Shown here one piece after another: positions 1-45,620 of a stretch of DNA of 47,590 nt. The DNA lies in the NCBI GenBank assembly GCA_008632985.1, contig QPGO01000167.1:124001-171590 (forward strand). The letters run 5' to 3'. The notes beneath the pieces are model-generated. The model did no database searches, had not been told where the DNA came from, and saw only the letters and a list, made by a program, of their open reading frames with translations. The stretch comes from Psammoneis japonica (Eukaryota). Made by a program: the position numbers and the translations under genes. How positions within the stretch are numbered: position 1 is the stretch's first letter; each line of letters opens with the position of its first letter.

Positions 1-3000
1 CGGCATTTTTGATGTCTTCGTTTCTCTTGTTCAGATTTCATTGGGATTCTTCACAAACCATGCGTCTGCAGACTTGAGGCTGAATCCTCGCAGCAACACA
101 TTATGATCTGATGTCACATTGAGGTGGTTCTTTGGTGTGTGCTCAAGGTCACTTGATTGACGGCCAAGAGTCAAGAGTGCAACATTTTGGTCACTTCAAC
201 AACAACAGGAAGGCTTGTTGTGACAGAATGTGACTGTGAAGAAGGCTGTGTGCTCTTGTTTCATCAATCTTGTCGGAAGTTAGGACAATGATGCCGGTGG
301 GGGTCAACGTTTTGTGCAACATCGTCGGCATTGTGCCTCACAGTGCCTCACTCTGCTGTCTGGAGGCCTTCTCTGCGACTTGCTCTTTGTCACTTTGCTC
401 TTTGTTGCTTTGCTCTTTGAAATGGATTTGGGCCAATGGCAAACCGCAAGAGTTGACAATGGTGCCTTTTAGTGCCTCACATTCTGTAGAAATTATGTCC
501 AGCAGTTTTGCGTGCTGCAGTCTCACTGCGCGCCATTGTTTCGTGCATCTTTCTGATCTCTCTGCAACTCTTGCCAGTGGATTGAATGTTGGGCACATTT
601 CTTCTGACCTTCACTGGTGTCACCCTGAGTCTTGGGTTGCCGCAGAGCAATCGCAAAATGGACAACGATTGTCACTGACAATGTTGTGGTGTCTCTCTAG
701 CTGGCAGCTCTAGCCAGTGCTGTGGCGTGTGGCGTCCTCACCGAGCTCGACATGAGATTTTGATCTTTTTTGCCGATCGAATTCGTTCCCAGCCTGATGC
801 CCGTAAATGCGCAAATTTGGCCAAATTGCATTCATTTTACGGCCGAAATTGTCAGGGTGGGAACGTGCCTCAGTGTCTCTTGTCACCCCCCGAAACAATC
901 CGAGCAAGTCATGCAAATTGGACGCTTCTCAGAATGGCTGTGCCTCATTGTCTGCACAAACAAAGAGCTGAGACAAAACATTCGATGCTTCAATGACTGA
1001 CAATGTTGCACCACTTGACAATCTTGGGGAGAATGATGTCCCTGCTGCCTGCTCTTGGGCTTCGTTTGGATGTTCAAGAACACCGGCAACCTCTCTGACC
1101 AAAACTCTTGACTGCGGTGCTTGCCGCTCATGAATGGTCGGGTGCAGTGGACAGAGAGTGCGCAATGTTGCACAGTCTGTCGTTGTCAGAGCAACATGCT
1201 TTGTCTTGTGTTTGTTGTCTTTGTGCTCAACTTTGTTGCCCAACTCTTGACAAACTTGCAAAGTTGAAGACGCAAGAACTCGGCAGCATTTTCAACCACA
1301 GCGATGATCCAACAAGTCCTGGCAGGCCAGCTTTTTTCCTCTTGATTTTTGTCATTGGTGAAGCCAACTCTCACAGCAATGTCTGCAAGTCAAGTTTCTT
1401 GATCTGCCAGCAATCCATTTCTCACATCCTTGTTCAGGGCACTCAGAGAATTGGGCCTCATTTTTCCTGCCCACAAAGCCATGAGGTGAGCAACATTGCC
1501 CACTGAAGTGCCAGTTCAAATTTTCAAGATGAGCTGTTCAAGAACATTTTGTTTGTGGCCTGTCCAGATGCTCATGTCAAGCAAGCTGGGGATGAATCAA
1601 GGCACATGCTGGGCCCACTTCTCAAGCTTTGCAATGGCCACTTTCAATGAGGTTGTAGAGAAAAAGAAGGCCAGCGGCGCACTGTTGGCCATTTTGAGGG
1701 AGTTGAGTTGAAAAAAGGTGTTTCTGATGATGGTCCAGAGTTGATGAGGATTGATGGTTGTTGGGTGAGGTCAGCCTGTGGTGTTTCACAAGCTGAGTCC
1801 ACTGTCTTCAGGCACAAGGAAAATGAGACAATGGGAGGTCTGTTCCATGTGGCTCCAAGGAGAGAGACGTGTGTTGTCAACTTTCCTGTCAAGAACTCCA
1901 AAAGTCAGTCAGAAAATGCTGATGACCCAGTTCCCAGTTTTGTGCAACAGCGCAACAACTGCGCACAAGCTCCAGGGGGGGGGGGGCAGCTGAGAGACCC
2001 TGGCTGTCAACAACTTTGGCCTCAGAAACAACAACTGGGTGGGGTTGTGCAGTTTGATGGCAGGAAAACAAAGGGCATGTTGCTGGCATTGAATGAACTC
2101 TTTGGTTGCTTCAGGCACATCAGAGGGCTCTCCAAGAAGGCTCTCAGAGGCTCGCCCTGCTGCAAATGACTGTGAAAGGCACAACAGCCAAAGATTGCAA
2201 TCATTGGACATTGATTTTTGTCAACAAAGCAACAACCCAGGCTTGCATTGTGTGATTGTCCTTGTCAGGCATGGAAACAAGGGGTTGAGTTCTTGTTTGT
2301 GTGTGCATGATCCTTGGTTTACAACAAAGCACAAAATCCAAAAATTCATCTCAACAGAAAATGTGGTGGGCTCACAATTGTCACAGCAACAGCTTGAAGT
2401 GGGGTTGCTTCTTTGAGGCAGGCAACTTCCTTGGTCTGTCTTGTTTGTGAGCTCAGGACTCTGTCATGGTGCAGAAATCAGCTGATCTGGTCCTGACTGG
2501 GGGTGGGTCAAAAGCAGATGGGAGACACACAAGGTCAGGACTTTGCTCTTCATCAAGGTCCAGGTCAGAATTTTCAACTGAGTTTTTCAAGTGCATGGAG
2601 TGCCAGAACAATGCTGCACACCTCATCTGTTGTGAGGGGATGGTGGAGAGGGCTCAAATTTGTGTCTGAGACCTGCAAGGCATTTGGTTGCTTTCATTTT
2701 GCCCCAAGGAGGTTGGCCATGATGTTGTTCCAAGGCGTCTTGTCTTGGTCAGGTGCGCATGAAGCCACAGACTCTCAGGCAGCACACTTGGCCATCTCTC
2801 AGGCCGCTGCACATTGCAGTGGAGTGGGTGCATGAGAAAGTGCAGCCTTGCCTGCAGCACTGCTTCATCACATTTTACAGTGTGTTTTTTCTCCTGCATT
2901 GTACCATCCTTCTCCTTGGCTTGTTTGCTCTTTTTGCTTTTTGGCTCACTGGGCTGGGCCTCTGATTCTTGTAAACTTGACACAGGAGGGCTTTGGGGTT

Positions 3001-3650
3001 GTGCTTTTGATTTCCTTGCTTTTCCTTTTTTTGCTCTGCTTTGGCAGCAATGTCTTTTGTGAATGTCCCCAGCAAACCTTGGAGTTTTTTTCGCTCATTT
3101 TGCAAGCTGTTGCTCGATGCAATCAGGCCCAACCTTTCTCCTGAACTTTGTGCACAGTCCACTCCTCAACAGGAGATGGCACAATTGGCTCATCTTTGAG
3201 GGCAGAGAGCAGCAGCAGCAGCATTTGCAGCCTTGAGTGGCTCATGCTTCTTCAACATGGCAGCTGTCTTGGCATTTGCAGATTTCAGCTGCTCTTGCTT
3301 GTGCAGCGAGCTCTGGAAACCAGGTGAGACAGCCTCAAAATTGACTCATTTTTGGAGTGTGGCTGTTTCCATCTGCTTCTGGTTGCTTTGGGCATGCAGG
3401 TTGCTGTGCTGTCTTCAGGCTTTGACGTCAAGAGAAGCTCCTGAGAATCTTGGGGCAGAGCTCTTCTTGGGATGGGGGTTCTTCTGGCACTGCTTGGCAG
3501 TCAAGCTGGTGTGAAATTTCTCAGATGACTTGGTTGTGATAGCAACACTGAGGCAGACATTGCAGAAGTTGTTGACACCCAATCTGGTCAAGTGCTTGTA
3601 GCAAAGAACATCCCTCCAAGGCATCTTTTGGGGCAATGGTCAGTGGTGCT
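1..3650. mobile_element. TpA-depleted decayed repeat/transposon block, family not identified (runs off left edge)
   Basis: Very few TA dinucleotides in 3.6 kb, strong TG/CA excess, many short Cys/His-rich Tyr-free ORFs in all frames. Same signature as the recognisable TEs elsewhere in the window. No transposase motif confidently recognised. Confidence 0.5.
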
Positions 3651-3996
3651 TTTCTTTTCATTTTCAGCCACATGGTGTGGTAGACCATGCCATCTCGAAA
3701 ACGCGACTTTAAATGTTCATTTTTATTATTTATGGAGAGCGGAAAACCAATAATCCCCCCCGCTAATCACCCTTTTGTCCGTCAATAGCCCCAACTGTCA
3801 TTCTTTGATTTCAGACATTTTTCCACTCACAAACCGCACTCGAAAACGCGAAGCGCAAGAGAGAAGACGAAAGGCAACACGAATACAAATCAGGAAACAA
3901 CAGATCATCAAGTGATACAAACCAAAAAGTCTACAAATAGATTAACAGGAATATTAGAGCAATCTCGATATCGTAAGACCGTGGGACCAAGGAATC

Positions 3997-5859: not shown

Positions 5860-6929
5860 TCATTACTGCAGCATAGAATGGATAGTGTCACATGCCTTCA
5901 TTCGCTTTAGTCGCCATTACTTCATATCAAAATTTACATAAACTCCTACTTTCAAACACCATGAACTTTCTTTTCCTTGGGAGGAGCCGGAGTACCTTGT
6001 GCGCTTGTGGTTATCACGATCGAGACTTTGTTTGCACCTCTTTTGACGTGCCACATTAAAAGGGGCCGTGTCTAGCTACTAGGCCCTATTATTGATAGTC
6101 ACAATTCGTCAATCCCAACAATCCCGTGACTGCACAGGCGCTTCGGACAACATCAACCGGAACCATCCTGGGCCTGGAGATCCTGTCCCCTTTCTAACAG
6201 CCAACACTTTATCAAAATGTGTCGGCAGCTTTCAAAAATTGTGAGTGACTCGTAAGTTTCTTTCCAGCAAAAAAGACAAACTTGTGTCACCATTTGAGCA
6301 GGAAAACGGGCAAATCAATATATGGAAAGGAATATGTTGGCGAAACATCACCCCTGTTGCTCCTCGACGTTCGATGTCAGATCGGTGTCAACATGCCATA
6401 CCAAAGTAGCACCAACCGACGGGCAAGCATGATGTTCCGGTTCAAACCGTTACAGTTCGTGTGCGGTTGCGTTGTGTTGGGGACGTCTTCGGAAGTGAGA
6501 CTGTCGAAGAAAGTTACGTAGAATTTGTACTAAAACAGTCTGTCAATCAGTGCGATAGGGGTATTTGGGATGCGCTGGACAGATCCTACGTGTTTTTTTG
6601 TGCGTACAAATTGTACTGGGAAAACCCCCAAACGCACTGGCGATCAGACCGCCTTCGTCGATCTCACTTCCAAAGACGCCCCCCAGTGTTGTGGCTGGTG
6701 TTTTATTGCAAAAGAAGGCTCGATCGGCATCTTCTGCGCGAGCGCACTCCATGCGACGCACGACGATCGAGCGCTCATGCACTCCATCCACTCTAATCTA
6801 ACAAAAATGGAAACGCACTTCACCAAGTGATCTCATCGAGCCATCATCTGAGCCTTTGGTGTCTCGCACCGCTGCCCTTCTGAACCCCGAACCCCCACTC
6901 ATGTTGAACATGAAGTCTTCTGGAATTGT

Positions 6930-7140
6930 TCACACTTGGCACACACAGAGTGCGCTGCAGCTCTCCTCATGCTGGGCCTTTTCAGAAGTGCTGGGCAAGG
7001 GATGCTTCTGTGTGCATGTCTCACCAGGGCAGCACAGTTGCTCATGATGCCACTCAGTCAGAGGTTTTTTTTGCACCTTTGGCACAATGATTTTGTCCCA
7101 ACAGCACATCAGCTGTCGTGATGGATCTCCCCCAGGAAGT
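6930..7140 (-). pseudogene. Ty3/Gypsy integrase zinc-binding (H2C2) fragment
   Basis: Minus strand reads GG..RQLMCCWDKIIVPKVQKKPLTEWHHEQLCCPGET, then after a frameshift TEASLAQHF, matching the KIVVP..LQ..I.EWYH..LCHPGETRTE.TI.QHF pattern recalled for Gypsy pol; WYH has become WHH. Confidence 0.6.
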
Positions 7141-7908
7141 GCGTTGCTGTTGTGGACAGAGTGTGCTGCTGTCGTGCGCTCAGCAACGCGTGCTTGCCTT
7201 TCTGCTGCTCCAGCTTTGTTTGCTGTTTGAAGCTTGCCAGTGGAGCTGAAATGCATCCAAAGCAAATGCTTCATGCAGAAGATGCAGAAGATGTGTGTCT
7301 GGCATCTTGAAGACAGCAGGATTGCACTCGGAACCCAAACTTGGTTCCAGCACCCAGATGACTGAAGGGCATCTGCAACCAGGCCACACAGAAAACACAT
7401 CCCCCCCAAGTTGGGGCCCATCTTGGGGGACCCTTTTCACCCTCAACATGTCCTGCCCCTGCACCCCTCCGCTGCCACATGTTGAGGGGTCATGCCACAA
7501 CTTGAGGGTTTCCCGCCCCATTTGCACCATCTTGAGTGTCCCCGTGTCAAGGCATGTCACTTGCCCTGTGTCTCCATTGCATCATTCTGCAATGTAAGAT
7601 TTTCCTTGTGCATGACTGTGCAACATCATCCCATGACATCATTCTGCAATGTCAGATTTCTTTTGCATGACAGCATGATGTCACATCACAAATGCCAGAT
7701 TTGCCGCTCCTCAAGAACTGACCCAGCCAGATTGAGTGTTTGTGCTTTTTTCTCCATGGAACAACCACCTCCTGGCTCAAATCTGACATTGCGCAACACA
7801 GTGCATGTCCACTGGAGAGAGATTGTCAGCCTCACCATTTTGTTTTTTGGCAACACCACACACACCGTTGCACCGCCATCACAACCACTCTTTGCAGCTG
7901 ACACCACA

Positions 7909-8304
7909 GACGCGTTCCAGCCCTAGGTGGGAGCTCGTAGTACTGACGTGTGACAACAATAATTTTTATCATCCGTCGTATGTTTCGTACGTAGATTTCT
8001 ACGTGTGATATTTAAAAAAAATTGTCCAGACTCGCTGTTTTGCGAAGCCCCAGACGTTTTATATAACAAATTTATAGAAACAATAATGCGCCAGTTACAT
8101 TCTTCAATGTCTGAAGAATGTAACTGGCTAAGTAAAAAATGATGTACTTCAATCATGTGCGAGTTTGTGCGTTCGCAAAATTGCCTCATTTTCTGTTGGC
8201 GATCATTGACATTTTAATTACCGTATAATTTTACTACGGAGCTCGCACGTAGAAGTCTACGGGCCCAATGTCACACGGATTCCCACCTACGTCTGGAACG
8301 CGTC
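7909..8304. mobile_element. 396-bp MITE, copy 1 (unmutated)
   Basis: TIRs GACGCGTTCCAG...CTGGAACGCGTC extending imperfectly to about 24 bp; 4-bp TSD CACA (7905-7908 / 8305-8308); central 17-bp-arm hairpin at 8090-8128; second copy at 40833-41228. Confidence 0.92.
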
Positions 8305-9690
8305 CACATGCCTTTGATTGCACTCTTTCTTGCTCTTCACTCACTCAGATTGATCCTCACAGTTGGACTCTGCAGGGCACACTTTGAAGAGTTCTGGGTG
8401 AACAACATTGAGCACTTCTCCATGCTGCTGTCTCTGTGCACTGCACCCATCTTTGCTTGCTGAACAAACATCTGCTGCTCATTCTTCTTCATTTCTGTCA
8501 AAGCCTCACCTGCTGCACCTCTTTTCTTTTCCCGCACCATCTTCATCAATGTTGCCCTTGCTTTCTTGGTTGCCTGCGTGAACAACATTTGCAACAAAAG
8601 GAAGCGACAATGCAAGGCACACATGTGGCACACACTTGCCTCTTCAGTGTCATTGTCCTCCTCCACCAGCTTGGTTTCCCATTCTGCATCATGAAGCAAA
8701 CCTTGCAGCTTCAATCTTGATCATTTCTCTTGTCTGTGGTGTCCAGCCCATTCATTGTCCATGTTTTGATCTGGCCATGATGGTTTGGGGGTTCTGGTTG
8801 TTGGTGCCGTTCATGCAGGAAGGATGACTGAGTCTGCCCCAAACAGCACTCCACTGCAGTTGTTCATGCTTTGTGTCCAATGTTCAGTGGAAAAGTTGAT
8901 TTGTGTGTTGGTTGCAGCTCCATCGGATGTGTCCTTGGCAGTTTTCAAAGTTTTCACGGTTGCTGTTTGCAGGTGCTGGAAATGTTCATCGTTGAAGTTC
9001 TCAATTTTAAATTTGAACAATGACAGGGGGTGTTTATGTTCCTGATCCTTTTGAAGGACCATTGCCTCAAGAGTTCATCATCAATCTTGTTCAAAGCCGG
9101 CCCAATCTTCGTTGGCTTAGAAGTGATCTGCTATTGGCTGAAAACCAGGCCATGTTGCAGAATAAGAGAACCGACATCGAGTTTGTGTCGAAATAATAAG
9201 GATGTAGCGTACGGCAGGCGTAAAGTGGGTGTAGTGTGTGGAATAGATATTTTATGACACAAACCAGTGTCTATACACCTCTACAAATAATCATGTTTTC
9301 TTTTTTAACCGTGTGTGCAATAAGATGATTAGCTGGATACAATCGAGCCAAACGTTTTTGAGACGTTCGATCGACTCCTCGTCCCATCATCAGACACATA
9401 CAGTATACCACAAACTTTTTTTCGGCATTATGAGAGAAGGTGGATATATAGGAAGAGAGGAATGTTTCTGGGGAAAGCCTGTTTTGTAAACAAAAACATG
9501 GTTGCGTGAGTGCAAATGTTCAGTTTCTCTGGCGGTTCCTTATTGCGTGTCTCTTTCGTCTATCGTGTTGTGCGCCGCCGGCTCCCTCGTCGCGCACTCG
9601 TGTGCTGTTTATGTTCTGGACGCGATTGGTTCTCTTTGTGCTGCTCCTCGGTGGACAGTGTTCTAATGGTCACACACACACTTGTGCTTT

Positions 9691-10917: not shown

Positions 10918-11285
10918 GGCGAAAGTTCGTTGAAGCAGGTCAGAAGTGCGTGGTGTCGCGATTCGCGATCTTATTTTTTCGAAAAGATCTTGTCGCGCGA
11001 CTTGATGCGCGGTTGAACGCGTCACGATTCTGCTCTTGACACCGATCTTCTGTCGAATCAACGAATGCTTTAAGGATAGTGACGTCATCTTTCAGATTAC
11101 GTCATTATGATGTCACAAGATCATATGGATTTCTTCGTCACTGAGTACATTGGATGGACACGTCAGTCGGTGTCAATCCATCAAAAAAGAAGATCGGCAC
11201 TTTTGTTTTGTTCTCGTGCTTTCGGTCATTGTTTTTAGAAAAAATAGAAAACCCATCAGCCATCATCAACGATTGTAGTTTCACC

Positions 11286-14200: not shown

Positions 14201-14551
14201 CTCAAACGTAGATCCAACGACTTGACACAAATGACTTTTGGTTACTCCCGCGACGACGTCGGCACCTTTGTCCCGTCCTATCTGCAACGCGGCATTTTAC
14301 TCGATGACCCATTCGTTACAATCGACACGGAAGGAGTCGGTCAACTCATCAAAATGTCTGTCGAAAAGGGACGCGCTGTAAATCCCAATTTAAAAATTGG
14401 CGTGTGTGGCGAACACGGTGGGGATCCTCGATCGGTTCACTTTTTCAGCAATGAGGCTGGCTTGACCTATGTCAGTTGTTCGCCCTTTCGGGTTCCAATC
14501 GCTAGACTGGCGGCTGCTCAAGCGGCAGTTGAAAAGAACAACAACAAGTAA
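11286..14551 (+). CDS. PPDK: Pyruvate phosphate dikinase, plastid-targeted; exons 11286-11791, 11910-12500, 12593-13094, 13201-14118, 14212-14551; apparent frameshift near 11710 and in-frame TGA at 12251-12253
   Basis: [103 protein letters not shown]. Four GT-AG introns that keep frame. Signal peptide then VQS-FQV. Confidence 0.95.
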
Positions 14552-14649
14552 ATAAATAGAAGTAAGGAGTTGTGGAAAACGCACACGTGGGAGTAGAGGT
14601 TATGTAATAATTTTGTACATCAAAACGACTATTGGTATTATTCTCTCTC

Positions 14650-15470: not shown

Positions 15471-15561
15471 TACGAGAAACTGTACAAGCACAACAGGTGT
15501 ATGCAAGAGTAAAGGTGGTGTGCTGGAGTGCGTTGTGATTGATGACGGCCTTTGCTTTGAT

Positions 15562-15645: not shown

Positions 15646-15799
15646 CTCTTGTCGGCCGATGATTCCTCAACAAGTAAAACCAGTAAAACCGACGCCCATG
15701 ATGACGCTCGTTCGACGACTCGGGTGTAGCCGCCGTCGGGCTGCTGGCTGCTGTCCTCAATTCATGGATCGCTGGCCGCATCCTGCGGCAACACGTTTA

Positions 15800-30792: not shown

Positions 30793-31429
30793 ATCTGCAT
30801 TCTGATCCAGGGACACACGAAGTGACGCGACTGCAGACTCTGGGGTACGACAATTTTCGATTTCCTTGTCAGAGTTCGAGGGCAGATAGAGGTTATGATC
30901 GGCGTTTGTGGTGAGTGATCGATCTGAGCTGAGATTGCGCGGGAAATTGAGATGTAAATGACAAATTCAAAATTGTCATTTTTTCTAAGTAAATAAAATT
31001 GTTGTTAAATACAGTTCAGCACTTCACTTAGTACAGTATGAGACATCTCATGCGACATATTGCACACACGGCACAAAACAAAACATTTCTGGACGGATTT
31101 GCCATCACCTTCTTTTCTTTTATCTCATATGCACACGAATACAATCAACGTAGAATTGTAGACATAGTGCGGCCATCGCCGACATCGCGGCGTCGTTGCA
31201 GTGTGGCGCACCCTATGTATATGTTAATGATTGTATTAGCTATTCAAGAGAACCGTTGTAACGGGCTTCGCTGATTGCGACCTCGTTCCTTCGGTCAGGG
31301 TCATTTCTGGCTCGTAGAAATCAACGCGTTGTCTGGTATTGAAATTCAAAAAGTAATGTTGAACCAACAGCAGTTCCCGATCCATTCAAAAAAACCGAAA
31401 CATCACTCCCTCATTCATTTCGTTCGTCA

Positions 31430-33400: not shown

Positions 33401-35429
33401 ATGTCCTCGAGTGCCGAGATTTCATCTGACCATGGTGGTGGCATCAATGGCCTTGTAGAACCTCAGCCGAACAAGCTTGTGACGCAGAACGAATCCATCC
33501 AAGCTCTGCGCATGTCAAGGAAATGTGTCGGCGAGTTGGAGGAGGACACAATGACAGAGTCCAGGCAGAGTGGTTCCCTTTTGAGCAACGAGGATGATGA
33601 TGACATTGAAAGCGAAAAGCTGTTGATGGATGAGGACTTTGTGTTTGACTTTGAAGACGACTTTGATGCCACGGATGCCACGGATTTGTCAAGGTGATTG
33701 GATGGTTGCAATGAGAGTGACATTGCAGAGGAGGATTCAATGACAGAGTCCAGGCAGAGTGGTTCCCTTTTGAGCAATGAAGATGATGATGACATTGAAA
33801 GCGAAAAGCTGTTGACGGATGAGGACTTTGTACTTGACTTTGAAGACAACTTTGATGCCACGGATTCGTCAAGGCAATTGGATGGTTACAATGAGAATGA
33901 CATTGCTGAACTTGTCGTGAAGTTCAGAGATGCTGCCGACAAAAGCAAAGCTGCGCATGAACTTTTCAGCCTTGAAGAAGAACCACTCCAAGACACAACA
34001 TCAAGGAAACCAACGAAGAAAAGGAAACGAGCAAGAGGTCGTCAAGCCGCCAAATCGAAGTTGAAGAAGCGTCGCAGGCGCACTGGGAAACCTGCTGCAT
34101 CGAAAGCTCCCCCCAAAAAGGTGAGTTTGTTTGCACTCAAATTATGATGATCTTGGTTTACAACTGGCACTCACTTTTGGCTTCTCCAGTTGTCGCGAAT
34201 GACTCCATCCAGGTTGAAGACAAAGGCCGATCAACAACAAGAAATGCTTGTGAATGTCGAGTTGCCACCAAGTCTCAACCTGGAGGCATCTCCAAGAGAA
34301 GCGATCACCAAAGTTTCGGAACTGGTGGAGAAGGTTGATTCGTGCCAACAAGCAAAGGAGCTGGCAACTCGAATTGATGCCTGCATCATCCTGTTTGCCC
34401 ATGCAAGAGGGCACACGGTTCGCCCTTTGAATCTTGGCAATGGGACATCAGACAACACAAAGGGAATCGCGCTGCTGCACTGCGCACCCGACGATTGCAG
34501 TTCTTGTCTCTCAATGCTGGACAAAGCTGTTGGGAATGGCTCATCATGCCTCAGCTTCATCTCCAACTCCAGTTGTTGCATCAATGCATGCAAGTGCATT
34601 TGGGCGGCAATGCATTGCAAGGAATGGATCAAAGATGCCAAGGAATTGGCCAAACTCATTTGTGCAGTTAACTTGAATCCAGTTCTGGCGGAGAAGAAGA
34701 GCAAAAACTGACAGCATGATGAGTTTTGTAGGACGGTTGGATGGTCTAAAAAAGAATGGCATTGGTTGGCCGCATTGAGAATGGAACTGCAGGCAAAGGC
34801 AATTTGCCTTCGAGACCGAAAGGGTGGTGCACAACTCACAGCTCTCCAGTGGATGAGCAAGTGTGATGCTGTCAAGATGCCTCACTGTGATTTCGAGACA
34901 AACGATGATCATGGCGCATGTCCCGTGCTTCATCCACAAGCATGGTTTGGTGCATCCATTTGTGCAGAACTCCTCGTGCTTGAGAATGTGTCGCAGAGGG
35001 AAATCAACGACTGCAGTGCAAACTGTTTTTGTGGGAAGGTTCTTGAGCATCAACACAAGACGAAGAAGGCTGCACTGTTCTCAAAACGTTTGCAAGCTGT
35101 GGGTGCAACCAAAGAGGATGTACGAGAGTGTGAGTTAGAGGTGAAGCTCATCAAGAAGGCAATGTTGGAGCTCATGCAAAAATTCAAAAAAAGCGTTTTG
35201 ACAAGAAAGAACTCAGCTGCTGGTCAAGAAGCTTGTCAACACATGAGAGAAATTTGTTTTAAGACATTGCACAAAGAATGAATTCAAAATGATCACCTCG
35301 AGTCAGAGACGTTCCATGGAATGACGCTGCATCAACACGCTTGTTGAATTCTCAGCACAGAGTCAGGGGCTGGAACGGGCTTGACTCTTTGTCAACACAG
35401 AACGGCAATGAGGCTGTTGTGTCATGGAA

Positions 35430-38010
35430 AGGGTTGGCTCCAAAGACTCGATGACATCTGCGCATGCAAGGAAGAGCACGGTGACAGTGAGCCGCCTTGC
35501 ACTTGGATGCTGCTGTGTCGATTTGTCATCTAAACTCCCTTTTGTTTGCTTGTTGTGACTCCAGCTGCAATCAGCCACATGAAAGATCCGTCTCTCTACC
35601 ACCGATGGATCCGGAAACAATGCAACAACAAGGAGAATCTAAGCGAAATGAAGCGTCGAGAACTGGAAAAGCCAGTTGGTGATTTGGATGACTGCTCGCG
35701 ACAGTGTGACACACCCAAGTCTTTTGAAGAATGACTCGAGGACATTTGTGTGTGCAAGGAAGAGCATGGTGATGGTGAGCAGAGCCGCTTGCGTGTCTCA
35801 ATGAATGGAGTCTATTTAGAATCTAACTCTTCATTTGTGTGCTTGTTGTGTGTCTCGCTCAAGTCATCAAAGCCAAAGACAGGTCTCTCTATGAATGGAT
35901 CCAGTGTCAATGCAACAACAAGGAGAATCTAAGCGAAGTGAAGCGTCAAGAACTGGAAAAGCCAACTGGTGATTTGGACAACTGCTCGCGACAGCATGAC
36001 ACACCCAAGTCTTTTGAAGAATGACTCGAGGACATTTGTGCACACAAGGAAGAGCACGGTGATGGTGAGCAGAGCCGCTTGCGTGTCTTGATGAACAGAA
36101 TCTATTTAGAATCTAACTTTTCTTTTGTGTGCTTGTTGTGTGTCTAGCTCGAGTCAGCCAGACAAAAGACAGGTCTCTCTACGGATGGATCTGGAAACAA
36201 TGCAACAACAAGGAGAATCTAAGTGAAGTGAAGCGTCAAGAACTGGAAAAGCCAACTGGTGATTTGGACGACTGCTCGCGACAGCATGACACACCCAAGT
36301 CTTTTGAAGAACGACTCGAGGACATTCGTGTGTACAAGGAAGAGCACGGTGATGGTGAGCAGAGCTGCTTGCGTGTCTCAATGAATGGAATCTATTTAGA
36401 ATCTAACTCTTCTTTTGTGTGCTTGTTGTGTGTCTGGCTCAAGTCAGCCAGACAAAAGACAGGTCTCTCTGTGGACGGATCCGGAAACAATGCAACAACA
36501 AGGAGAATCTAAGCAAAGTGAAGCGTCGAGAACTGGAAAAGCCAGTTGGTGATTTGGACGACTGCTCGCGACAGTGCAACACACCCAAGTCTTTTGAAGA
36601 ATGACTTGAGGACATTCGTGCACACAAGGAAGAGCACGGTGATGGTGAGTAGAGCCGCTTGCGTGTCTCAATGAACAGAATCCATTTAGAATCTAACTCT
36701 TCTTTTGTGTGCTTGTTGTGTGTCTAGCTCGAGTCAGCCAGACAAAAGACAGGTCTCTCTACGAATGGATCCGGCATCAATGCAACAACAAGGAGAATCT
36801 AAGCAAAGTGAAGTGTTGAGAACTAGAAAAGCCAGTTGGTGATTTGGACGACTGCTCACGACAGTGTGACACACCCAAGTCTTTTGAAGAACAACTCGAG
36901 GACATTCGTGTGTGCAAGGAAGAGCACGGTGATGGTGAGTGGAGCCGCTTGCGTGTCTCAATGAACAGAATCTATTTAGAATCTAACTCTTTTTTTGTGT
37001 GCTTGTTGTGTGTCTGGCTCGAATCAGCCAGACAAAAGACAGGTCTCTCTGTGAATGGATCCAGCATCAATGCAACAACAAGGAGAATCCAAGCAAAGTG
37101 AGGCGTTGAGAACTGGAAAAGCCAGTTGGTGATTTGGACGACTGCTCGCGACAGTGTGACACACCCAAGTCTTTTGAAGAATGACTCGAGGACATTCGTG
37201 CATGCAAGGAAGAGCACGGTGATGGTGAGCAGAGCCGCTTGCGTGTCTCGATGAACAGAATCTATTTGGAATCTAACTCTTCTTTTGTGTGCTTGTTGTG
37301 TGTCTAGCTTGAGTCAGCCAGACAAAAAACAGGTCTCTCTGTGGATGGATCTGGTGTCAATTTCGAGACAAGGAGAATCTTGGTGAAGAAAAGCATCAAA
37401 AACTGGAAGAACTCATTGGTGATTTGGGCGACTGCCAGTGCTTCACATGCAACTCTTTTGAAGAACGACTCAAAGACATCCACGCATGCAAGGAAGAGCA
37501 TGGCGGCAGTGAGTCGAGGCTTTTTTGTCTCTTGTTTTACAGAATCTATTTGGAATCTAACTTTTCTTTTGTTTGCTTGTTGTGTGTCTAGCTCGAGTCA
37601 GTGAAGCCAAAGACAGGTCTCTCTACGAATGGATTCGGCATCAAGTTCGAGACAAGGACAACCTCAGTGAAGAAAAGCATCGAAAACCAGAAGAGCTGGT
37701 TGGTGATTTGGATCACTGGTTGCGACAGCGTGAGTCACCCAAGTCTTTTAAAGAATGACTGCAGGACATTCGTGCATGCAAGGAAGAGCACGGTGGTGGT
37801 GAGCAGAGCCGCTCACGTGTCTTGTTGAATGGAATCTGTTTAGAATCCAACTCTTTTTTTGTTTGCTTGTTGTGTGTCTAGCCATGGTCAGCTGCACGAA
37901 AGATCCGTCTCTCTACAAATGGATCCGGCGTCAACTTCGAGACAAGAAAAATCTAAACAAAAAACAGTGTCGAGAACCAGAGGGACTCATTGGCAACTCG
38001 GAAGCCCAGC
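35430..38010 (+). repeat. About nine tandem ~290-bp exon+intron units, each encoding an HA-like domain
   Basis: Period 290 bp (35839, 36129, 36419...). Each unit has G|GTGAG donor, CTAAC branch point and CTAG acceptor; spliced consensus SFEERLEDIRAYKEEHGD|ARVSQTKDRSLYEWIRKQ...NLSEVKRRELEK. Confidence 0.85.
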
Positions 38011-38262
38011 CCGGCTTGCCTCGGCCTCCTCCTCCTCCGCTTCCAGTCTGCACTCAGCTCCCAGGTCAAATGATTGCAGCACACCCGCGCTTGCTTCCAC
38101 CTCCTTTGCACCTCTCAGCGATTGCCGGTTCTCCACCCGTTGTTCTTCCTTCTGCTTCCGCCCCTTCACTCGTTCTTGCTCTTAATCCCGCCATGAAGAC
38201 AGCTGTTCAGCCCCAACAGCCTGTGCAGGTTGTGCATTCCTCCAACCCAGGGTTTGCATGCC

Positions 38263-38445
38263 CTCCGCCACCACCACAAGTGCACCCACTGCTGCCGCAA
38301 GTGCATCCGCCGCCACCGCAAGTGTGTCCGCCGCCGCCACAAGTGCACCCGCCGCCACCGCAAGTGTGTCCGCCGCCACTGCAAGTGTGTCCACCACTGC
38401 ATGTGTGTCCGCCGCTGCAAGTGCATCCGCCACTGCAAGTGCACT
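38263..38445 (+). repeat. 21/18-bp coding minisatellite PPPPQV(C/H), ancestral PPPPQVY inferred
   Basis: Units CCGCCGCCACCGCAAGTG followed by CAC, CAT or TGT. Confidence 0.8.
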
Positions 38446-39165
38446 GTCACCCCTCCTCTTGGGGGGAAAGGAGGGAAAAGCATTGCACAGCAGGAAGAGA
38501 GGGTTGTGAAAATGTTGGACTTTTGTGACTGGCGACAGCTCCGCAGAAGTGATGCCAGCATGTCGTGTAGAAATGAGAAACGAACATCCTGTTTTTTTGA
38601 CAGACTGCGACTGGCATCGCTTTGCTCACACGACTTCTTGCGGTGATCTGATTCTAGAGACAGGTGATCAGTGGGGATGGGAGGACTTCACTGGTGCAGT
38701 TGGTCCCTTTCCATTCCCAAGCTGGAGCGGCATGGCCAGAGGGAGGGAGAGGTGGGAGCGCTTTTAGACTGTCCACTCAGCTTGCTGCCAAAGCTCTTCG
38801 GAAGAATGAGCAACAGCAGCTTGCTTCCAAACACCAACTTGAACGCGTTCAATGTGGCAGATGCGGGGGGTGATTTCCCGGTGCGTCATCAACGGGCAAT
38901 GAGGTCATCTCCCCTTGTCGGTCTTTACGAGGCCAGTGACTGGCGTCGCTTTGCTCGCATGACTTCTTGCGGTGATCTGATTCTAGAGACAGGCAACCAG
39001 CAGGGATGGGAGGACTTTGCTGGCGCAGTTGGTCCCTTTCCATTCCCAAGCTGGAACGGTGTGGCCGTTCCGGCGCCACCCACGCACACTGGTGTGGGTG
39101 GTGGCGGTGCAATTGGGTGGGTGGGTGGGCCTGGCTGGAAGGCTGAGGCGTGGCCTGTGATGGAA

Positions 39166-40200
39166 TCACGGGTCGGCAGCAGCAAGGGGCACATTGGCGT
39201 TGGGGTGCAGGACAAATTGGCCACCCGCCAACATGCAGGTTGCGAAATTGCACATGACGGGTTCTGCTTGTAAGTGGAGGTAACGGAGCATCTTGTCGGA
39301 GCGCCATCGGCCTAAGAGGCGGATCACGTTGGTGTCAACATGGGCACATAGGAGGGCCATGGCACCAGCCACACGCAAACAGCAAGCGGAGACATCGGCG
39401 GGTGTGAAACCCAGCTCAGCAGGGCCGATTGCCAGAATTGCGGTGCGTGGGATGCTGGTGATGTCGGCGGGAGAGACACGGCACCAGGTGTTGTCATGCA
39501 AGTGCACACCAAGGGGCGTGTCTGGTGTGGCGCCAAAGGCGCGGAGATGTTTCACGCGACGGACAAGGGCGCGTGTCGGACAGAGGTCAGGGTGCCCGGA
39601 TGGGCCAAGACCTGTCACTTCGCCACGCACGCCATTCTTTCTGTGTGGCAAAAGTGAGCGTGCCAAAGGTGGCGGTGTCGAGGTGTTCATCAACGCAGGT
39701 GAACAAATCGAGGCAAGCACCTCCCGCGGAGAGGCGAACGTCCCCCAACCAAAATGGAGTGGTGTCGGAAGGGGTGGCGGTGCATTTGCCTGGCCGCAGG
39801 AGGAAGAAAAAGGCCAAAGCAGTCATGTCTGCGATGGCTTGGGTGCCCGGATGGTTGGTCAGGGAAGCGGCATGGGCAATCCACAAGAGGACAGCGACGG
39901 GGACCAGTTTGACCCGGTCTGGCGGAGGATCCTCTTTCTTGTAGAAACGGATTTGGCGGCTGATGCGGAAATCCATGTTGCCTTGGAGTGTGTGCCGCGG
40001 GTCCGGGGACCCCATTGCAGCAAACGTTTGGCCAATTGACCGTAAGGCACCCTCAGCGGTGCATGCGCGGATGGGATTGCCACGTGGGGCGATGGCACCT
40101 GCATGGAATCGGTGCACAAAAACTTGGAAAAAGATGACTGGGTCGTCGACGTCTTGCAAGAGAGGGTCGAGGGCCAAGTCGTTACAGAAACTTCACCAGA
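39166..40200 (-). pseudogene. Tyrosine recombinase of the Ngaro element (frameshifted)
   Basis: AFFFLLRPGKC (R-I), LCPTRAL, SACCLRVAGA (R-II), LLGRWRSDKMLRYLH (W and catalytic Y). Confidence 0.88.
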
Positions 40201-42760
40201 GGTCCCAGTGGGCATTGCTGGAGCTGGCGGGAAGAAGCGGCAACGCCGTGGGCAACGGCATGTTGCACAGCGCCGAGATCACGTAGGAACGCAGCACGGG
40301 TGGAGGGGTCCAAAGGCGCCAAGAGGGAGTCTGTGGGCAGTGAGTGTTAAAATGTTGCAAGAAGGCACGGTTGGACAATTGTTGCAAGCAAGAGGCGTCA
40401 TCTGCAGCGGTGTTTGACGGTCCCGGCAAGCAGTCGTGGAGAGACAGGCAGCAGTGGAAACGTTGGTGGTGACCTTGGTGTCGAAGGAGGGGTGCTGCGA
40501 CCTTCGCAGTCGTGGTGGAGCCCTTGCGTTGACGAAAGAGAGTGCCGGTGTTGTCCGTGCGGTCAAGCACTGTGCACTCTCGAACGTCAAAACAGTCCGC
40601 CGCTGCACAGGATTGCACAACACTGCCGACCAACTCCAAGTCGGTGTTGGCAATGGGGCTGCGGGGATTCTTAAAAGTGGACAGGCGGTCGGTGACTGCT
40701 TGAGGGAAATGCATGCGCCAGACAATGGGTCCGGCATCATGTTGTGGTCTCCGACGGCAAGCAGTGGAGTGACGCAGAGTGGTGCTGCATGCGACCGCTG
40801 ACGGTGCAGGGAGAAGGACGCCACCTGCGCCAGACGCGTTCCAGCCCCAGGTGGGAGCTCGTAGTGCTGACGTGTGACAACAACAATTTTTGTCATCCGT
40901 CGCATGTTTCGTGCGTAGATTTCTACGTGTGACATTTAAAAAAAATTGTCCAGACTCGCTGTTTTGCGAAGCCCCAGACGTTTCACATGACAAATTTATA
41001 GAAACAACAATGCACCAGTTACATTCTTCAATGTCTGAAGAATGTAACTGGCTGAGTAAAAAATGATGTGCTTCAATCATGTGCGAGTTTGTGCGTTCGC
41101 AAAATTGCCTCATTTTCTGTTGGCGATCATTGACATTTTAATTGCCGTGTGATTTTACTGCGGAGCTCGCACGCAGAAGTCTGCGGGCACAATGTCACAC
41201 GGATTCCCACCTGCATCTGGAATGCGTCGCCATGACCGGCTGCATCATGGCAGCCCGTGACAGTGGGCGACAGGGGGACAAGTTCTTGGATGCGGGTGGG
41301 GCGGAGATCGAGCCCGCGGCACAACAACCGAAAATCGTCCAACATGTCATGAAAGTTGCGGGCAAGACGAACTCGCCCATCGGGTTTGGTGTGGAGCAAG
41401 GCTTCTTGGAGTTCGGAGAACAGATTGTGAGACCTGGGAATGCCGGGCGTGAGGGATCGCAGTTCGCCAAGAAGCTTGTGCAGGTCGGTGAGCGCTGCCC
41501 GCTTGCGGTGGCGGGGAAACTCTTCGTGCGGCGTGGTGCGGAGGCGCTCGCGGCGTCGCGGCGCAAGGCTTGTGGTCATGGACAAAGTGTCAATGATCCA
41601 CCCTGGGACCTCCTTCTGCGTTGACCAAGTGGCGTTGCCTTTGCGGAGCTTTTTGACTGAGATTGGCTCCTTGCGACTTGCGTGATCTCGGTCGTCGAGT
41701 GGACGAAATGCATCGTCAATGGCGTGCATGATCGTGCGATGCATGTTGCGCAGCGATTGTTTGGAGCCTTGGGCGGCGCCGACAAAGTCATCAACGTAGA
41801 CATCAACACATTGGAGGCACCGCCGGTGGTGGTGCACGAGGTGTGGATCCGGCGTGTCTGGCACTGGGACAGCGATGGACGGATTCATGTCAGCAGCATC
41901 AGCGTGGTGCTTTGGTGGTCGGCTGTCGAGGCAAGGTTCGAGTGGGTGTTCCGGTGCCCGATGGTTGCGCACGAGCTGGCGATCCACAATGCCGGTGACT
42001 GTCTTGGTCGCTGTGCCAAATGCCAGAGGTGAGTTGGACCATCCCATGGGCAACCGAGTTGGCATGGCCACCAGGGGAGGTTCCCCGGGAAGGCGGGGAA
42101 AAACCACACCTGGTGTGGGTGCTTGCTCGGGCGCCAGCTGCATGCGGTAGAAACCATCCGCTGGGTCAATCTTCATTGGATGGATGCGGCCCTTGTTTGG
42201 ATTGGCAAGGAGAACGTGCCGAAGGATGCGGTCCAGCGTGCGCCCGAACTGCATGGATTCCATTGGCACGTTTGGCTGAGCAGAGGGATCAACACCGTGG
42301 AACGTGCAATCCACAATCGGTCGTGGTCTGCGCGCGTGTTGTGGGACAACGCCGACAGGACTCAGCCGTAGATTGGGTTCATTCTTGACGTCGTTGCATG
42401 GAACAACCACCCAGAAACCCTTGTCAACACAGTCAGACATGTCTTCGCGCAAAAACTCAATGTGTTCGTAGGCGGACTTGTGTGGTCCTCGAGCGATGCC
42501 ACCTTGGAGCTCAGCGTTGGACCATGGCTCGTCTGCAACAGTGACCGGCACCCCTCGACATTTGCAGCCGGTGAGCACTCGGTGTGCTGCATGCTGTCGC
42601 GTTGTCACCAATGGTCCCCAGTCACCTCTGCCACTGCACAGACGCAACAAGCAACTGAGGCCTCTAAGGCGCAATAATTTTGCATCGCGTGTAATTTGCT
42701 TGCCTGATTTGTCAGTCAGTGCTGATGCAGCCACATCCTGTCCACGTGTTGTGGGGAGGA
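40200..42760 (-). pseudogene. Reverse transcriptase/RNase H of the Ngaro element, interrupted by MITE copy 2
   Basis: LSPVGVVPQHARRPRPIVDCT, KIDPADGFYR, LPMGWSNSP, CVDVYVDDFVG, KEVPGWIIDT. RNase H DAAGHG|AGGVLLP is restored by removing the MITE and one TSD; then NTDLELVG, TDNT and NTAADDAS. Confidence 0.9.
40833..41228. mobile_element. 396-bp MITE, copy 2 (TpA-mutated), inserted in Ngaro RNase H
   Basis: Colinear with 7909-8304; 4-bp TSD GCCA (40829-40832 / 41229-41232). Confidence 0.93.
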
Positions 42761-42879
42761 AGTGCCATTTTCTAGACTCCACTTGTGGGGGTTGTGGATG
42801 CATGGGCTTGTGTGCCCGTGCGGGAAGTGGCTCTTGGTTCCATGTCCCCGAGCAGGAACCATTGCCAATGACCTGTTCG

Positions 42880-45142
42880 GTCTTCCAATGTTGCACACCC
42901 CACGTGAGAAGGTCGACCTGCTCCTGCTCCATGTGGCTGTGATGATGATCGGCGCGTGATCTGCAGTTGTTGTTGCACTGTCCGATGAAATGGCATGGGA
43001 GACAACGTGGCGCCCCTTGGGAATCCGTGGGCAAGGCGACATTGTCACGGGCGCAGCGCTGCTTGACGGTGCACGAACGCACATTGGGATGCTCCCGCAA
43101 GACCGCGAAGCGTTCGTCGTGCTGTTTGTTTGCGGATGATGGAATTGTCGCCAGGTGCATTGACGCAGTTTTGTCCTGGCTGTGGCTGCCCAGAAGTCTG
43201 CGAACGCGGTGTCGTGGGCGGTTGAAGGACAGACGTCGGTGGGTCGAGATGCCAACAGTGGGAGCCTTGTGCGGCCTCAGCCACCACTGGGAGCGGTTGA
43301 AATGGGACAGGGTTTTGTGAGTGCATTTGCGCCTGGAACCAATGGCACATCTTTGCCTGCGCGCAACGTTGCAGGTCCGCTGGCAACGTCGGGTGCGACA
43401 CCACTTGCACCGCCAAATCGTTCGCGCAGACATCCATTGACTGGCGCATGTGAGTCAACCACTGTGCCAGTGGATGTGCCGCGCCAAAGGCTGCTGAGAG
43501 AACGATGCACAAACTGTTGAAGGACTGCTGAACTGCCTGGATCGCAGTGGCCACCATGGCGTCGTCCAGGGCCTCCAACACACGCGCACCTGCCAAGGAT
43601 GGTGTGCCATCGCCTCCATGAATCTGTTGACACATGGAGCTGCGACAGGCGGTCTGCTTGGCTTGCTCCGGTGCAGTGATGCCGAACAAGAAGGGGGTGA
43701 TCCCCTGAGTTAATTCATCCTTGTCATGCCCAGCAAAGTCGACTTGGGTGAGTTTTGTGACCAGGTTCACGGTCACTGGCACGCTGAAGCACACGTGGTG
43801 TGCTTGACGTTGCTCATCAATTGCATTTTGGATGGCAGCAATTCGGCCGGTCTTGGGAGAGGCCGCCAGTTGCACCCAGAGTGGTGGCAGGTTCCCCGCA
43901 GAACTCCGTCAGTGTCTTGCCGCGTGATGCCGCCTGTTGGCGCGCTTCTGCATCCAAACGTTGTTGGCGCTGTTCTGCTGTCAAGCTCTCGATGGCCGTG
44001 ACCACTGGCTCGAACTGGCATGGTTGCGGCGGTTGGCCTGTGTGGTGCGGAAGATCACGCTGCACCATTGCGTCAAAGAAACAAATGAGCACTTCGTTGG
44101 GTGGCTGCACCATCGTTGGCCATGCTTGCGCTGCTTCGGATGTGTGTTGGTCCCATGCTGTCGCACAACACGCCACTTTCAAAAAGTCCAGAAGTGGCCT
44201 GCATTTGTTGACCGCATTGGCAGCTGTGACAGCCCCCAGTGCCCGGGTGAATGCTTGCTTTGGCGTCAACGGCGTTGAAAGCAAGAGATTGACACATGCA
44301 AATGGCACCATCATGGTGTTCTGCATCCTGACCTCAACCGCGTCTGGGTCGCTTGGCTGCACTTGTGGGTGCAATCCTTCCGGGGTCGTGACAATGTGAG
44401 CTTGCAGCGCTGCATCGGTCGGCACCCACGTGCCGTGTTGGGCCAGCTGAAAGGCATCGTTAGCGACGGGTGCAAGTTGGCATTGTCCCATCGTCAGGTC
44501 GCCTGCGAGCGCAAAGAATTGTCCGTCCCACGGTTGTGCTGGTCCCTGCCACCGTGATCGGGTGCTGGGTTGCGCGATGAAACACCTGCACAACTCCCGC
44601 ATTGTTGCCTCCTTGCACCCGGCAGTGCTGTGCCAGTGCCACAGGCAAATCGTGCAAAGAAGCTGCTCCAACACAGGTCCTCAGCACGTCAGGATCACAG
44701 CGGGATTGCCCTTGCAGTGGGACCATGAAGTCCTGCATGAGATTTCCGCACAGTTGCCGGCGTGCGGATCCTTTGTGGCGTGCGAGCAGTGATCCCGACA
44801 GGTCCGGATTGCTGCCGGTGGCGCTGGAACTCCCTGCCCCACGGGACCTGCTGGCAGCACGGGTGGTGCTTGAGGTGCCGGCTGTTGGGGAGCCCCTCGG
44901 TCCCGGGGCTTGTCCTCCCTGCGCTGCGGCAGGTTGTGCCGCTGCTCCTGGCACTGCCGGCGCCATGGGATGCACCAGTGCTGGCGGCACGTTCTGGGCG
45001 TTGTTGGCCGCCGGAATCGGTTGTTGGGGTTGTTGTGCCGCCGCAGCGGCGTCCGGCGGCGGATTGTTTCCGACACTTCCGTCTTGGTGCACATGACGTG
45101 TGACTGTCCTGCGAGCTTCACAGGTGCAGCGGCGGATGGCAT
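42880..45142 (-). pseudogene. Gag-like ORF1 remnant of the Ngaro element
   Basis: Position between A1 and RT; Pro/Ala/Gln-rich N-terminus; C-terminal CLPCHFIGQCNNNCRSRADH zinc-finger-like motif; several frameshifts. Confidence 0.6.
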
Positions 45143-45620
45143 CCTCCGCCGAACACAATAGCGCTTTTAGACTATCTATTCGGCTTGCTGCTAAAGCTCT
45201 TCGGAAGAATGAGCAACAGCAGCTCGCTTCCAAACGCCAACTTGAACGCGTTCAATGTGGTAGATGCGGGGGGTGATTTCCCGGTGCGTCATCACGGGGT
45301 AATGAGGTCATCTCCCCTTGTCGGTCTTTACGAGGCCAGTTATAATAAATAAGAACGCGCGCACCAGAACCAAGAACCAAACCGGTCACCCACATGTTTT
45401 GATGACTTGGTCAACAGCTTTCTACCCGAAAGGATCGTCTGGAATGGAAAATAGGAGTAGCAAGTCTCCATTCTGTAGTGGAAAAGTAGTGCCTCCGCAG
45501 TACCGACTGGCATTATACGGCGAGTGGAGGGAATGGAAGCGAAAAGCGAAGTAGTATATATGGTACACTCGCGTGTAGTAGTTACATCACATTTCACATA
45601 TAAGTGTTTAATTTGAAACC

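Follow-up and report, generated by a model that had tools for sequence, protein, structure and literature searches.

TpA-stripped blocks of the window

The stretch of DNA analysed here (in the following the window; 47,590 nt of contig QPGO01000167.1) raises the question why long blocks, including most of two Ngaro-type retroelements, contain almost no TpA dinucleotides (TA), while the genes between these blocks do. The evidence described below makes it probable that a real hypermutation at the DNA level, acting after insertion, converted TpA to TpG or CpA in presumably silenced DNA of mobile elements, the host being an ochrophyte and most likely a diatom. Three of the affected blocks (1-3690, 15800-17255 and 31470-35440) carry no element assignment.

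The block edges were determined from a 500-bp sliding profile of the observed/expected ratios (o/e) of TpA and CpA/TpG, together with a segmentation and a list of all TA positions. In the profile, the blocks showed a TpA o/e of 0.00-0.3 and a CpA/TpG o/e of 1.4-1.9, compared to 0.4-0.8 and 1.0-1.4 in the genes between them. AA/TT and AT were not depleted in the blocks. The segmentation gave stripped blocks at 1-3690, 6800-7906, 8311-9100, 15800-17255, 17803-~20100 and 31470-45158, with a partly stripped satellite at 35442-37990, and according to the TA positions the edges of these domains are sharp to tens of bases. For the pooled set of nine blocks (22,626 bp), 134 TA were counted, compared to 1328 expected by base composition (o/e 0.10), along with an o/e of 1.61 for TG+CA and of 0.60 for CG. 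The remainder of the window (23,444 bp) showed values of 0.55 for TA, 1.20 for TG+CA and 0.97 for CG. Applied to the blocks, the TA rate of this remainder predicts 734 TA (Poisson P ~1e-163). Altogether, 157 of the 471 500-bp windows of this stretch were classed as stripped. The original prediction, which had been made from the letters alone, described TA-poor, TG/CA-rich blocks separated by intact genes of ordinary composition; both observations were reproduced, and its edges match ours within ~100 bp. The depletion of CpG in the same blocks had not been mentioned there.

The blocks and stretches outside the two Ngaro-type elements are as follows:

1-3690: TA-stripped block 1, a repeat family running off the left end of the window (17 TA compared to 241 expected; 59 CG compared to 216)
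6800-7906: TA-stripped block, left part, interrupted by a miniature inverted-repeat transposable element (MITE); 6870-7900 with a TA o/e of 0.02 and a TG/CA o/e of 1.9
8311-9100: TA-stripped block, right part; 8320-9100 with a TA o/e of 0.04 and a CG o/e of 0.19
15800-17255: TA-stripped block without close copies in the read set; TA o/e 0.07, depth 42.6-46 in read set X1, about single copy
31470-35440: TA-stripped block of unassigned element type with an internal 190-bp duplication (33539-33909); TA o/e 0.10, TG/CA o/e 1.65
35442-37990: 290-bp satellite of ~8.3 copies, partly stripped (tandem repeat call; TA o/e 0.23)
37991-38608: TA-stripped stretch within the block 37990-45150, TA o/e 0.12

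Frame scans gave no evident coding frame in 1-3690, 15800-17255 and 31470-35440. For the latter, no Pfam match was obtained, and a frame of 627 residues, in which four TGA codons were translated as X, proved to be of low complexity. Among 133 stop-to-stop frames of the blocks, Pfam returned three weak sub-threshold matches and no element domain. For annotation this matters, since stripping abolishes the Pfam matches of an element and, by removing TAA and TAG, creates spurious long open reading frames (ORFs).

Direction of the change and authenticity of the bases

The direction of the change can be read from repeat pairs which are formed by the following elements:

38609-45340 (minus strand): large Ngaro-type retroelement with split repeats, reverse transcriptase (RT) and ORF3; 38609-45159 is TA-stripped throughout
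45160-45340, 38938-39066, 38757-38937 and 38609-38737 (minus strand): its repeats A1, B1, A2 and B2, respectively
42882-44717 (minus strand): its ORF1
41229-42632 and 40214-40840 (minus strand): its ORF2, RT/RNase H (RH)
39187-40228 (minus strand): its ORF3, a putative tyrosine recombinase
17459-20079 (plus strand): small Ngaro-type element of 2.6 kb with the same split-repeat plan
17459-17802 (plus strand): its 5' repeat A1, spared, with 38 TA (o/e 1.19)
17803-20079 (plus strand): its remainder, with TA-stripped interior (TA o/e 0.04), B1 at 19492-19616, A2 at 19611-19954 and B2 at 19953-20079
7907-8310: high-copy MITE of 404 bp with 24-nt terminal inverted repeats, unmutated, 31 TA (o/e 0.90)
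40831-41234: another copy of this MITE, whose insertion splits ORF2 of the large Ngaro element; mutated in part, 93.6% identical to 7907-8310

Three repeat pairs could be polarised, each with one copy in a stripped domain and the other one outside or spared. Of the 38 TA in A1 of the small Ngaro element, 32 are TG or CA in A2. The MITE copy at 40831-41234 has 20 of the 31 TA of 7907-8310 converted (12 to TG, 8 to CA), and in the large Ngaro element 5 of the 7 TA of A1 are converted in A2 (38757-38937). In none of the pairs was a reverse change found, so that the pooled pairs comprise 57 changes from TA to TG or CA and 0 in the opposite direction, while 0 of the 76 TA sites became CG. As the original prediction had stated, such pairs differ mostly by TA versus TG or CA, this class making up 32 of 39, 20 of 26 and 5 of 11 differences, respectively. 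The resulting 57 of 76 differences compare to only 77 of 841 in two gene-duplicate controls (72/736 and 5/105). One of the controls, an FG-GAP repeat gene duplicated in tandem over 3.3 kb (20316-23627 and 24282-27590, 76% identity), showed an ordinary substitution spectrum.

The assignment of the large element to the Ngaro type, made already in the original prediction, is right. PAT/Ngaro elements are defined by split direct repeats of the order A1-B1-A2-B2, in which A2 repeats A1 and the internal repeats lie downstream of the recombinase or last ORF (PMC4157794), and the element combines this repeat order with an RT and a third ORF, whose identity as a recombinase is putative. Ngaro elements are further expected to carry a tyrosine recombinase gene and to lack a methyltransferase domain. 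A blastx comparison with the ORFs of 80 metagenome relatives recovered ORF1, ORF2 and ORF3 in order over 39187-44717. ORF2 (open frame 41130-43454, minus strand) has 95 relatives with E-values down to 2e-197 and identities up to 61%; PF00078 is present in some of them, and those with a named source are from diatoms. Between ORF3 and the ORF3 of one relative, the identity is 44% (E 2e-46). The stripped ORF2 has lost its own Pfam match, and in the intact relatives 0 of 7 ORFs matched any family. No ORF match was found in the small element, whose B1 and B2 are 95% alike and which would be non-autonomous. Together, two Ngaro elements, one MITE copy and one satellite are the mobile or repetitive sequences among the stripped targets.

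The pair differences taken alone are symmetric, and a reversed polarity would therefore assume that the TA-poor state is the original one and that a process like fungal repeat-induced point mutation (RIP) changed CpA/TpG to TpA in the TA-rich copies. These copies, with a TpA/ApT of 0.94-1.27 and a (CpA+TpG)/(ApC+GpT) of 0.85-0.91, would even pass the fungal RIP cut-offs. Nonetheless, the TA o/e of 0.02-0.12 in the stripped blocks lies far below that of the genes (0.55) and of the 80 metagenome relatives of the Ngaro element (0.32-0.85), in which only 3 of 3824 500-bp windows were classed as stripped. The same direction is reflected at the protein level. Tyrosine accounts for 3 of the 775 residues of ORF2 (0.4%), compared to a mean of 2.0% in its homologues, and 4 of 6 conserved tyrosine columns read cysteine, encoded by TGC. 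In the alignment of 95 homologues, the window covers 4 of 8 conserved tyrosine columns with 2 tyrosines and 2 cysteines, and the 14 other rows listed with the lowest tyrosine content show no cysteine at these columns. The peptides given as examples in the original prediction were located in minus-strand frames of 39782-42407. Compared to the consensus of 36 relatives and to the ORF3 of one relative, IVDCT, VVPCND and RPGKC carry cysteine in place of tyrosine, and DPADGFY and KEVPGW carry proline in place of leucine, as claimed. Moreover, read depth shows that the MITE exists in high copy number in its TA-bearing form (summed word depth ~75,000 compared to ~57 in genes), it is the TA-poor large element that carries the broken ORF2 and altered conserved residues, and of 20 listed read differences located in blocks, 9 show TA in other copies, compared to 1 in the opposite sense. 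A reversed polarity is thus extremely improbable. The claims that A:T to G:C changes occurred at the palindromic TpA, on either strand, and that the direction is opposite to RIP are borne out by the pairs, the composition of the relatives, the exchange of tyrosine for cysteine and the read-derived contigs described below.

Double differences of TG against CA were rejected as an additional proof of a TA ancestor. CpG decay occurs in the same blocks, and in the satellite 12 columns mix CG with TG or CA, compared to 5 columns that mix TA with TG or CA.

The original prediction had named PCR-based reads with TA at the stripped sites as counter-evidence. The contigs of read set X1, which were built from exact 31-mers, reach up to 315 kb and have a word depth of ~57 in genes, reproduce the TA-free stretches. 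At unique depth (55-72) they differ from the window by 0-1 substitutions: 0 differences in 971-1587, 1 in 2254-3938, 1 in 6660-7431 and 0 substitutions in 8279-8886. The contig at 2254-3938 bridges the edge of block 1 into ordinary DNA, and a single contig of 3277 nt (14048-17323) spans a gene, the block 15800-17255 and a TA-normal island. Since the contigs match the stripped stretches and bridge their edges, an artefact of assembler or polisher and a chimeric join are ruled out.

A modified base at TpA in silent chromatin that is misread as C or G would also produce errors restricted to domains, and a random choice of strand would give TG or CA; in addition, no sequencing platform is recorded either for the assembly or for X1. 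Yet such a miscall is unlikely in view of the exact-word depth of ~57, which is not expected from error-prone reads. Polymerase-based reads report 5-methylcytosine (5mC), 5-hydroxymethyluracil (5hmU) and N6-methyladenine as the parent base. Furthermore, the change from tyrosine to cysteine at the protein level and the graded loss in the second MITE copy fit a true mutation. Base-calling or assembly artefacts as the origin of the signature are therefore considered highly improbable.

One difference between assembly and reads was observed at position 2903, where the assembly has TA and the sole X1 contig (depth 65.5) has TG. This could be a segregating or recent change from TpA to TpG, a haplotype difference or an assembly error. 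In run X2, the whole depth at 12 listed sites in 87-355 differs from the letter of the window, and 8 of these differences restore TA. Other copies of the block-1 repeat carry TA at 8 listed sites in 97-355, and X2 over 87-355 is a TA-bearing repeat copy from elsewhere in the genome and not the stripped copy of the window. X2 behaves like RNA, as one of its contigs skips three short stretches that fit GT..AG introns with a shift of 1 nt. Several bins in the blocks are without X2 cover; this absence was not used as evidence.

Specificity and targeting of the change

The negative logarithm of the surviving TpA fraction was 1.85, 1.04 and 1.25 for the small Ngaro, MITE and large Ngaro pairs, respectively, compared to 0.15, 0.12 and 0.26 for CpG in the same DNA. 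All other differences amount to 4 of 238, 2 of 288 and 1 of 140 bases, i.e. 7 of 666 bases that belong neither to CpG nor to TpA. Accordingly, TpA changed ~100 times more than ordinary sites and 5-12 times more than CpG in the same DNA, these factors being pair-based estimates and not rates per generation. Dating of repeats by their divergence would be inflated ~100-fold at TpA.

The decay of methylated CpG resembles this process in occupying the same domains and in ending in TpG/CpA. It cannot remove TpA, however, and within the same DNA its rate per site is lower by a factor of 5-12. CpG was lost at 8 of 53 sites in the stripped copies, compared to 1 of 47 in the spared ones, and the domain of TpA loss coincides with what reads most simply as a methylated domain. 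In diatoms, such elements are methylated by DNMT5a (PMC9998398).

Both strands were affected, with 25 changes to TG and 32 to CA, a bias that is not significant. Processive bursts on a single strand were considered and rejected, since runs tests on the order of TG and CA were not significant (z -1.5, +0.7 and -1.2). The pattern resembles that of single, mutually independent hits to either strand, and each site was hit once because its product is no longer a TpA. With regard to the neighbouring base, a comparison of the two strands within each site showed that the strand with a 3' C was changed in 17 cases and lost in 5, whereas a 3' G won 5 times and lost 15 times; A versus T was balanced (11:11). 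Comparing blocks with genes, TGC/GCA was in 1.95-fold excess, which agrees with the preference for a 3' C but is confounded by the ancestral composition. In the same comparison, which is suggestive, confounded in the same way and partly in disagreement with the within-site choice (A versus T), surviving TA amounted to 0 at ATAT and ATAC and was most abundant at TTAA.

The two Ngaro elements allow the target to be narrowed down further. In both, A1 shows a normal TpA content (o/e 1.19 and 0.70; for the large element at 45160-45340), while the interior and the sequence-identical A2 are stripped. For the small element the asymmetry between A1 and A2 gave a Fisher P of 2e-15. The edge of the stripped domain lies at the inner end of A1 in either case (17802/17803 and 45159/45160); in the large element the TA-free sequence ends with 45158, and the next TA is at 45159. 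Since identical A1 and A2 fared differently, the targeting depends on position or chromatin state and not on homology alone. A1 may lie outside the silent chromatin domain. An alternative, at present a lead, is that A1 is located upstream of the transcript of the element and that only transcribed DNA is edited. The sparing of A1 thereby offers a testable handle on how the target domain is defined.

The two MITE copies are informative about timing. While one copy is untouched within a fully stripped block, the other one has lost two thirds of its TA, from which it follows that the process acted in place, after insertion, and that it was not continuous everywhere. The unmutated copy is compatible with an episodic activity.

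These observations bear on two further explanations. Hyperediting of element transcripts from A to I by an ADAR- or ADAT-like enzyme at the RNA level, followed by reverse transcription and reinsertion, might be considered because its best-characterised targets are retroelements and because fungal ADAT-type mRNA editing prefers U at -1 (PMC11156358). However, the MITE is a DNA transposon that was mutated in place inside its host element, and the satellite was affected too. Within a single insertion, 32 of 38 TA sites distinguish A1 from A2, and the two strands were hit about equally (TG 25, CA 32). Altogether, an origin at the RNA level is highly unlikely.

Passive damage, an option also listed in the original prediction, would consist in a TpA-specific lesion such as an ultraviolet (UV) TA photoproduct left unrepaired in untranscribed heterochromatin without any dedicated enzyme. 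It would fit the location of the blocks, which are intergenic repeat islands, and the fact that light-exposed algae suffer UV damage. In contrast, a dipyrimidine C to T signature is missing, with 7 of 666 bases differing outside CpG and TpA, and the edges are sharp to tens of bases between the identical A1 and A2. The unmutated MITE in a fully stripped block argues for a regulated activity, as does the occurrence of a comparable process in only some laboratory lines of Bigelowiella natans (see below). We consider passive damage very unlikely, if marginally less so than an origin in RNA.

The comparison with fungal RIP leads to a clear separation. Common to both is a hypermutation that disables mobile DNA by transitions at one dinucleotide and leaves a strong footprint. 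RIP introduces C to T changes, chiefly at CpA, and thereby creates TpA, whereas TpA is destroyed here. RIP also needs duplicates; here A1 was spared and A2 stripped in 2 of 2 elements, the block 15800-17255 is stripped at about single-copy depth, and the 3.3-kb gene duplicate at 76% identity is untouched. The process runs in the opposite direction and neither requires duplication nor is triggered by it alone; it is therefore not RIP.

A further pair of sequences was noted beside the block 15800-17255. The stretches 15564-15655 and 17346-17449, each of ~100 bp and with normal TA, are 74% alike and flank this block. They might be spared terminal repeats of a third element, a similarity of 74% being too weak for such an assignment.

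Related systems and possible chemistry

The closest counterpart is described by Mettrop et al. (bioRxiv 10.64898/2026.01.13.699255), who report a TpA-restricted hypermutation of integrated DNA of nucleocytoplasmic large DNA viruses (NCLDV) and virophages in the rhizarian B. natans. According to this preprint, 231 of 302 nuclear mutations in 15 mutation-accumulation lines fell into two integrated viral regions, and 230 of these 231 were A to G or T to C, all on TpA. The rate was ~1000 times the background and was raised only in some lines. TpA-poor, CpA+TpG-rich clusters of the same genome were enriched in reverse-transcriptase and transposase genes. As a candidate enzyme, the authors proposed an ADAT2-like deaminase. 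The original prediction knew of no such system. For diatoms, no report of TpA hypermutation was found in the full-text literature searched (subscription-only papers and bioRxiv supplements being outside its reach). The same TpA-only signature has, however, been measured in B. natans, so that the system as such is no longer undescribed.

Both cases share a change that is confined to A:T to G:C at TpA, giving TpG or CpA depending on the strand. In both it is restricted to discrete regions with a rate far above the rest (here ~100-fold, from pairs) and leaves TpA depletion and a gain of CpA+TpG as its long-term footprint. They differ in the host, which judging from the best named relatives of its PPDK regulatory protein (see below) is an ochrophyte, probably a diatom, and not Bigelowiella, and in the targets, here transposons and a satellite instead of viral insertions. 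The stripping here is also close to saturation (TA o/e 0.02-0.12), compared to a TA o/e of 0.45 in the NCLDV region of B. natans. Co-located CpG decay, a 3'-base bias and the sparing of a 5' repeat were observed here and were not found in the abstract, Results and Discussion of the preprint or by a term search of it. On the other hand, B. natans offers a measurement of de novo mutations, while the evidence from the window consists of one assembly and the contigs of one sample. With the present data, the process is extended to an ochrophyte and to transposons, beyond the viral insertions of B. natans. It would accordingly not be a quirk of one species or of viral DNA, and among marine primary producers one major group may share it widely.

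The mechanism we propose would be of the same kind as the one measured in the mutation-accumulation lines of B. natans. The adenine of TpA would be deaminated enzymatically to hypoxanthine, which is read as G. This adenine-deamination chemistry, taken by itself, is our leading guess, to which we give somewhat less than an even chance. A deaminase of the TadA/ADAT type might be recruited to silent chromatin, either marked by 5mC or guided by transcripts, and the elements would be killed by erasing tyrosine codons, TAA and TAG stops and TA-rich signals. TadA acts on a UAC loop, which recalls the 3' C preference observed here. The TadA/ADAT type is favoured because this family reads U or T before the target A, because ADAT2 has been reported to act on DNA and because the 3' C bias fits: fungal ADAT-type mRNA editing prefers U at -1 (PMC11156358), and amphioxus ADAT2 deaminates A and C in DNA, both in vitro and in cells (PMC10354150).

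As in TadA, ADAT2-ADAT3, ADAR and the TadA base editors, the reaction would convert A to I, read as G. The natural substrates of these polynucleotide deaminases, unlike the one considered here, are RNA loops or double-stranded RNA, and bulk editing of chromosomal TpA is not known for any natural enzyme. Such an enzyme would be of interest to developers of base editors. ADAR tolerates a 5' A, while ApA is not depleted in the blocks. Hyperediting by ADAR that is fixed by retrotransposition also fails to account for the in-place mutation of the MITE copy and the satellite and for the difference between A1 and A2. Somatic hypermutation by AID and the action of APOBEC3 are likewise deaminase-driven and locally confined hypermutation in the service of immunity or defence. 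The action of AID leaves the promoter untouched and begins shortly after the transcription start, a pattern similar to that of the spared A1. Both AID and APOBEC3 deaminate cytosine in other contexts, however, and a link to transcription would be an inference here.

The second possible chemistry leads via thymine. A TET/JBP-type hydroxylase would convert the T of TpA in silent DNA to 5hmU or 5-formyluracil, the mispairing with G would cause T to C changes, and since TpA is palindromic, every count given above fits T to C equally well. In other protists, 5hmU or base J shows a bias for TpA, and 5-formyluracil mispairs with G. 5hmU itself pairs with A, so that a further oxidation or a faulty repair would be needed for the ~100-fold mutagenesis. 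Neither a thymine hydroxylase nor 5hmU is known from diatoms, although no search aimed at them was made. In dinoflagellates, 5hmU made by a dedicated enzyme silences transposons (PMC11572971). Overall, the thymine route seems unlikely, although it is clearly less remote than passive damage, RNA editing, artefact or reversed polarity.

Several points weigh against the interpretation as a targeted, probably adenine-based hypermutation and limit its scope. The signature comes from one window of one genome. No responsible enzyme is visible within the window, as the original prediction had already noted, and because of the palindromic TpA the sequence cannot separate A to G on one strand from T to C on its complement. 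For X1 no platform is recorded, and its reads may share the sample of the assembly and would then not represent independent biology. The preference for a 3' C derives from 50 informative sites and uncorrected tests. The sparing of A1 is based on two elements, and A1 of the large one lies at most 300 bp from the 3' end of an active gene, which could explain its sparing without a link to transcription. For the blocks 15800-17255 and 31470-35440 the evidence is compositional, without a polarised pair. Finally, no clearly stripped relatives were found among 80 metagenome loci or 150 protein representatives, and the combination of low tyrosine and high cysteine seen in the ORF of the window occurred in 0 of the 150; both samples favour intact copies.

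Among the metagenome relatives, three loci (L002, L026 and L069) showed the lowest TpA content (o/e 0.32-0.37) along with an elevated CpA/TpG (1.33-1.62). It may be that these are copies from other diatoms in which the process has acted to a slight extent.

Going beyond the window, DNA editing at TpA might be an old pathway of genome defence across SAR (stramenopiles and rhizarians), in which a deaminase derived from TadA/ADAT is brought to its targets by their nascent transcripts, comparable to an "AID for adenine". As a whole this extension is speculative and rather unlikely, though less so than the thymine route. It would explain why the transcribed body and A2 are stripped and A1, upstream of the transcript, is untouched, why an element that has ceased to be transcribed leaves a newly inserted MITE unmutated, and why the strand carrying a 3' C is preferred. 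The two hosts make a comparative search for the enzyme possible, as candidate deaminases or thymine hydroxylases should be common to both and absent where the footprint is absent.

The remaining observations concern sequences beside the blocks. Just outside B2 of the large Ngaro element, the stripped stretch contains CCG/CCA-rich tandem repeats of 18-21 bp (38264-38443), which if translated would give a repeat rich in proline. Another MITE-like unit (~205 bp, terminal inverted repeats of 31 nt) has normal TpA and is located at 6479-6683, just left of the block starting at 6800; the bin holding it (6004-6670) has a summed read depth of ~4350, compared to ~57 in genes. Of the neighbouring genes, the two that encode a discoidin domain (F5/8 type C; 28291-30816 and 45621-47393) form a paralogous pair. 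A gene for a PPDK regulatory protein (Kinase-PPPase, PF03618; 9691-11088, minus strand) is arranged head to head with a PPDK-like gene containing a PEP-utilising enzyme domain (11154-14122, plus strand), the latter being the gene in which the X2 contig skips the three intron-like stretches. The best named relatives of the PPDK regulatory protein are found in diatoms and Triparma, with identities of at most 58%.

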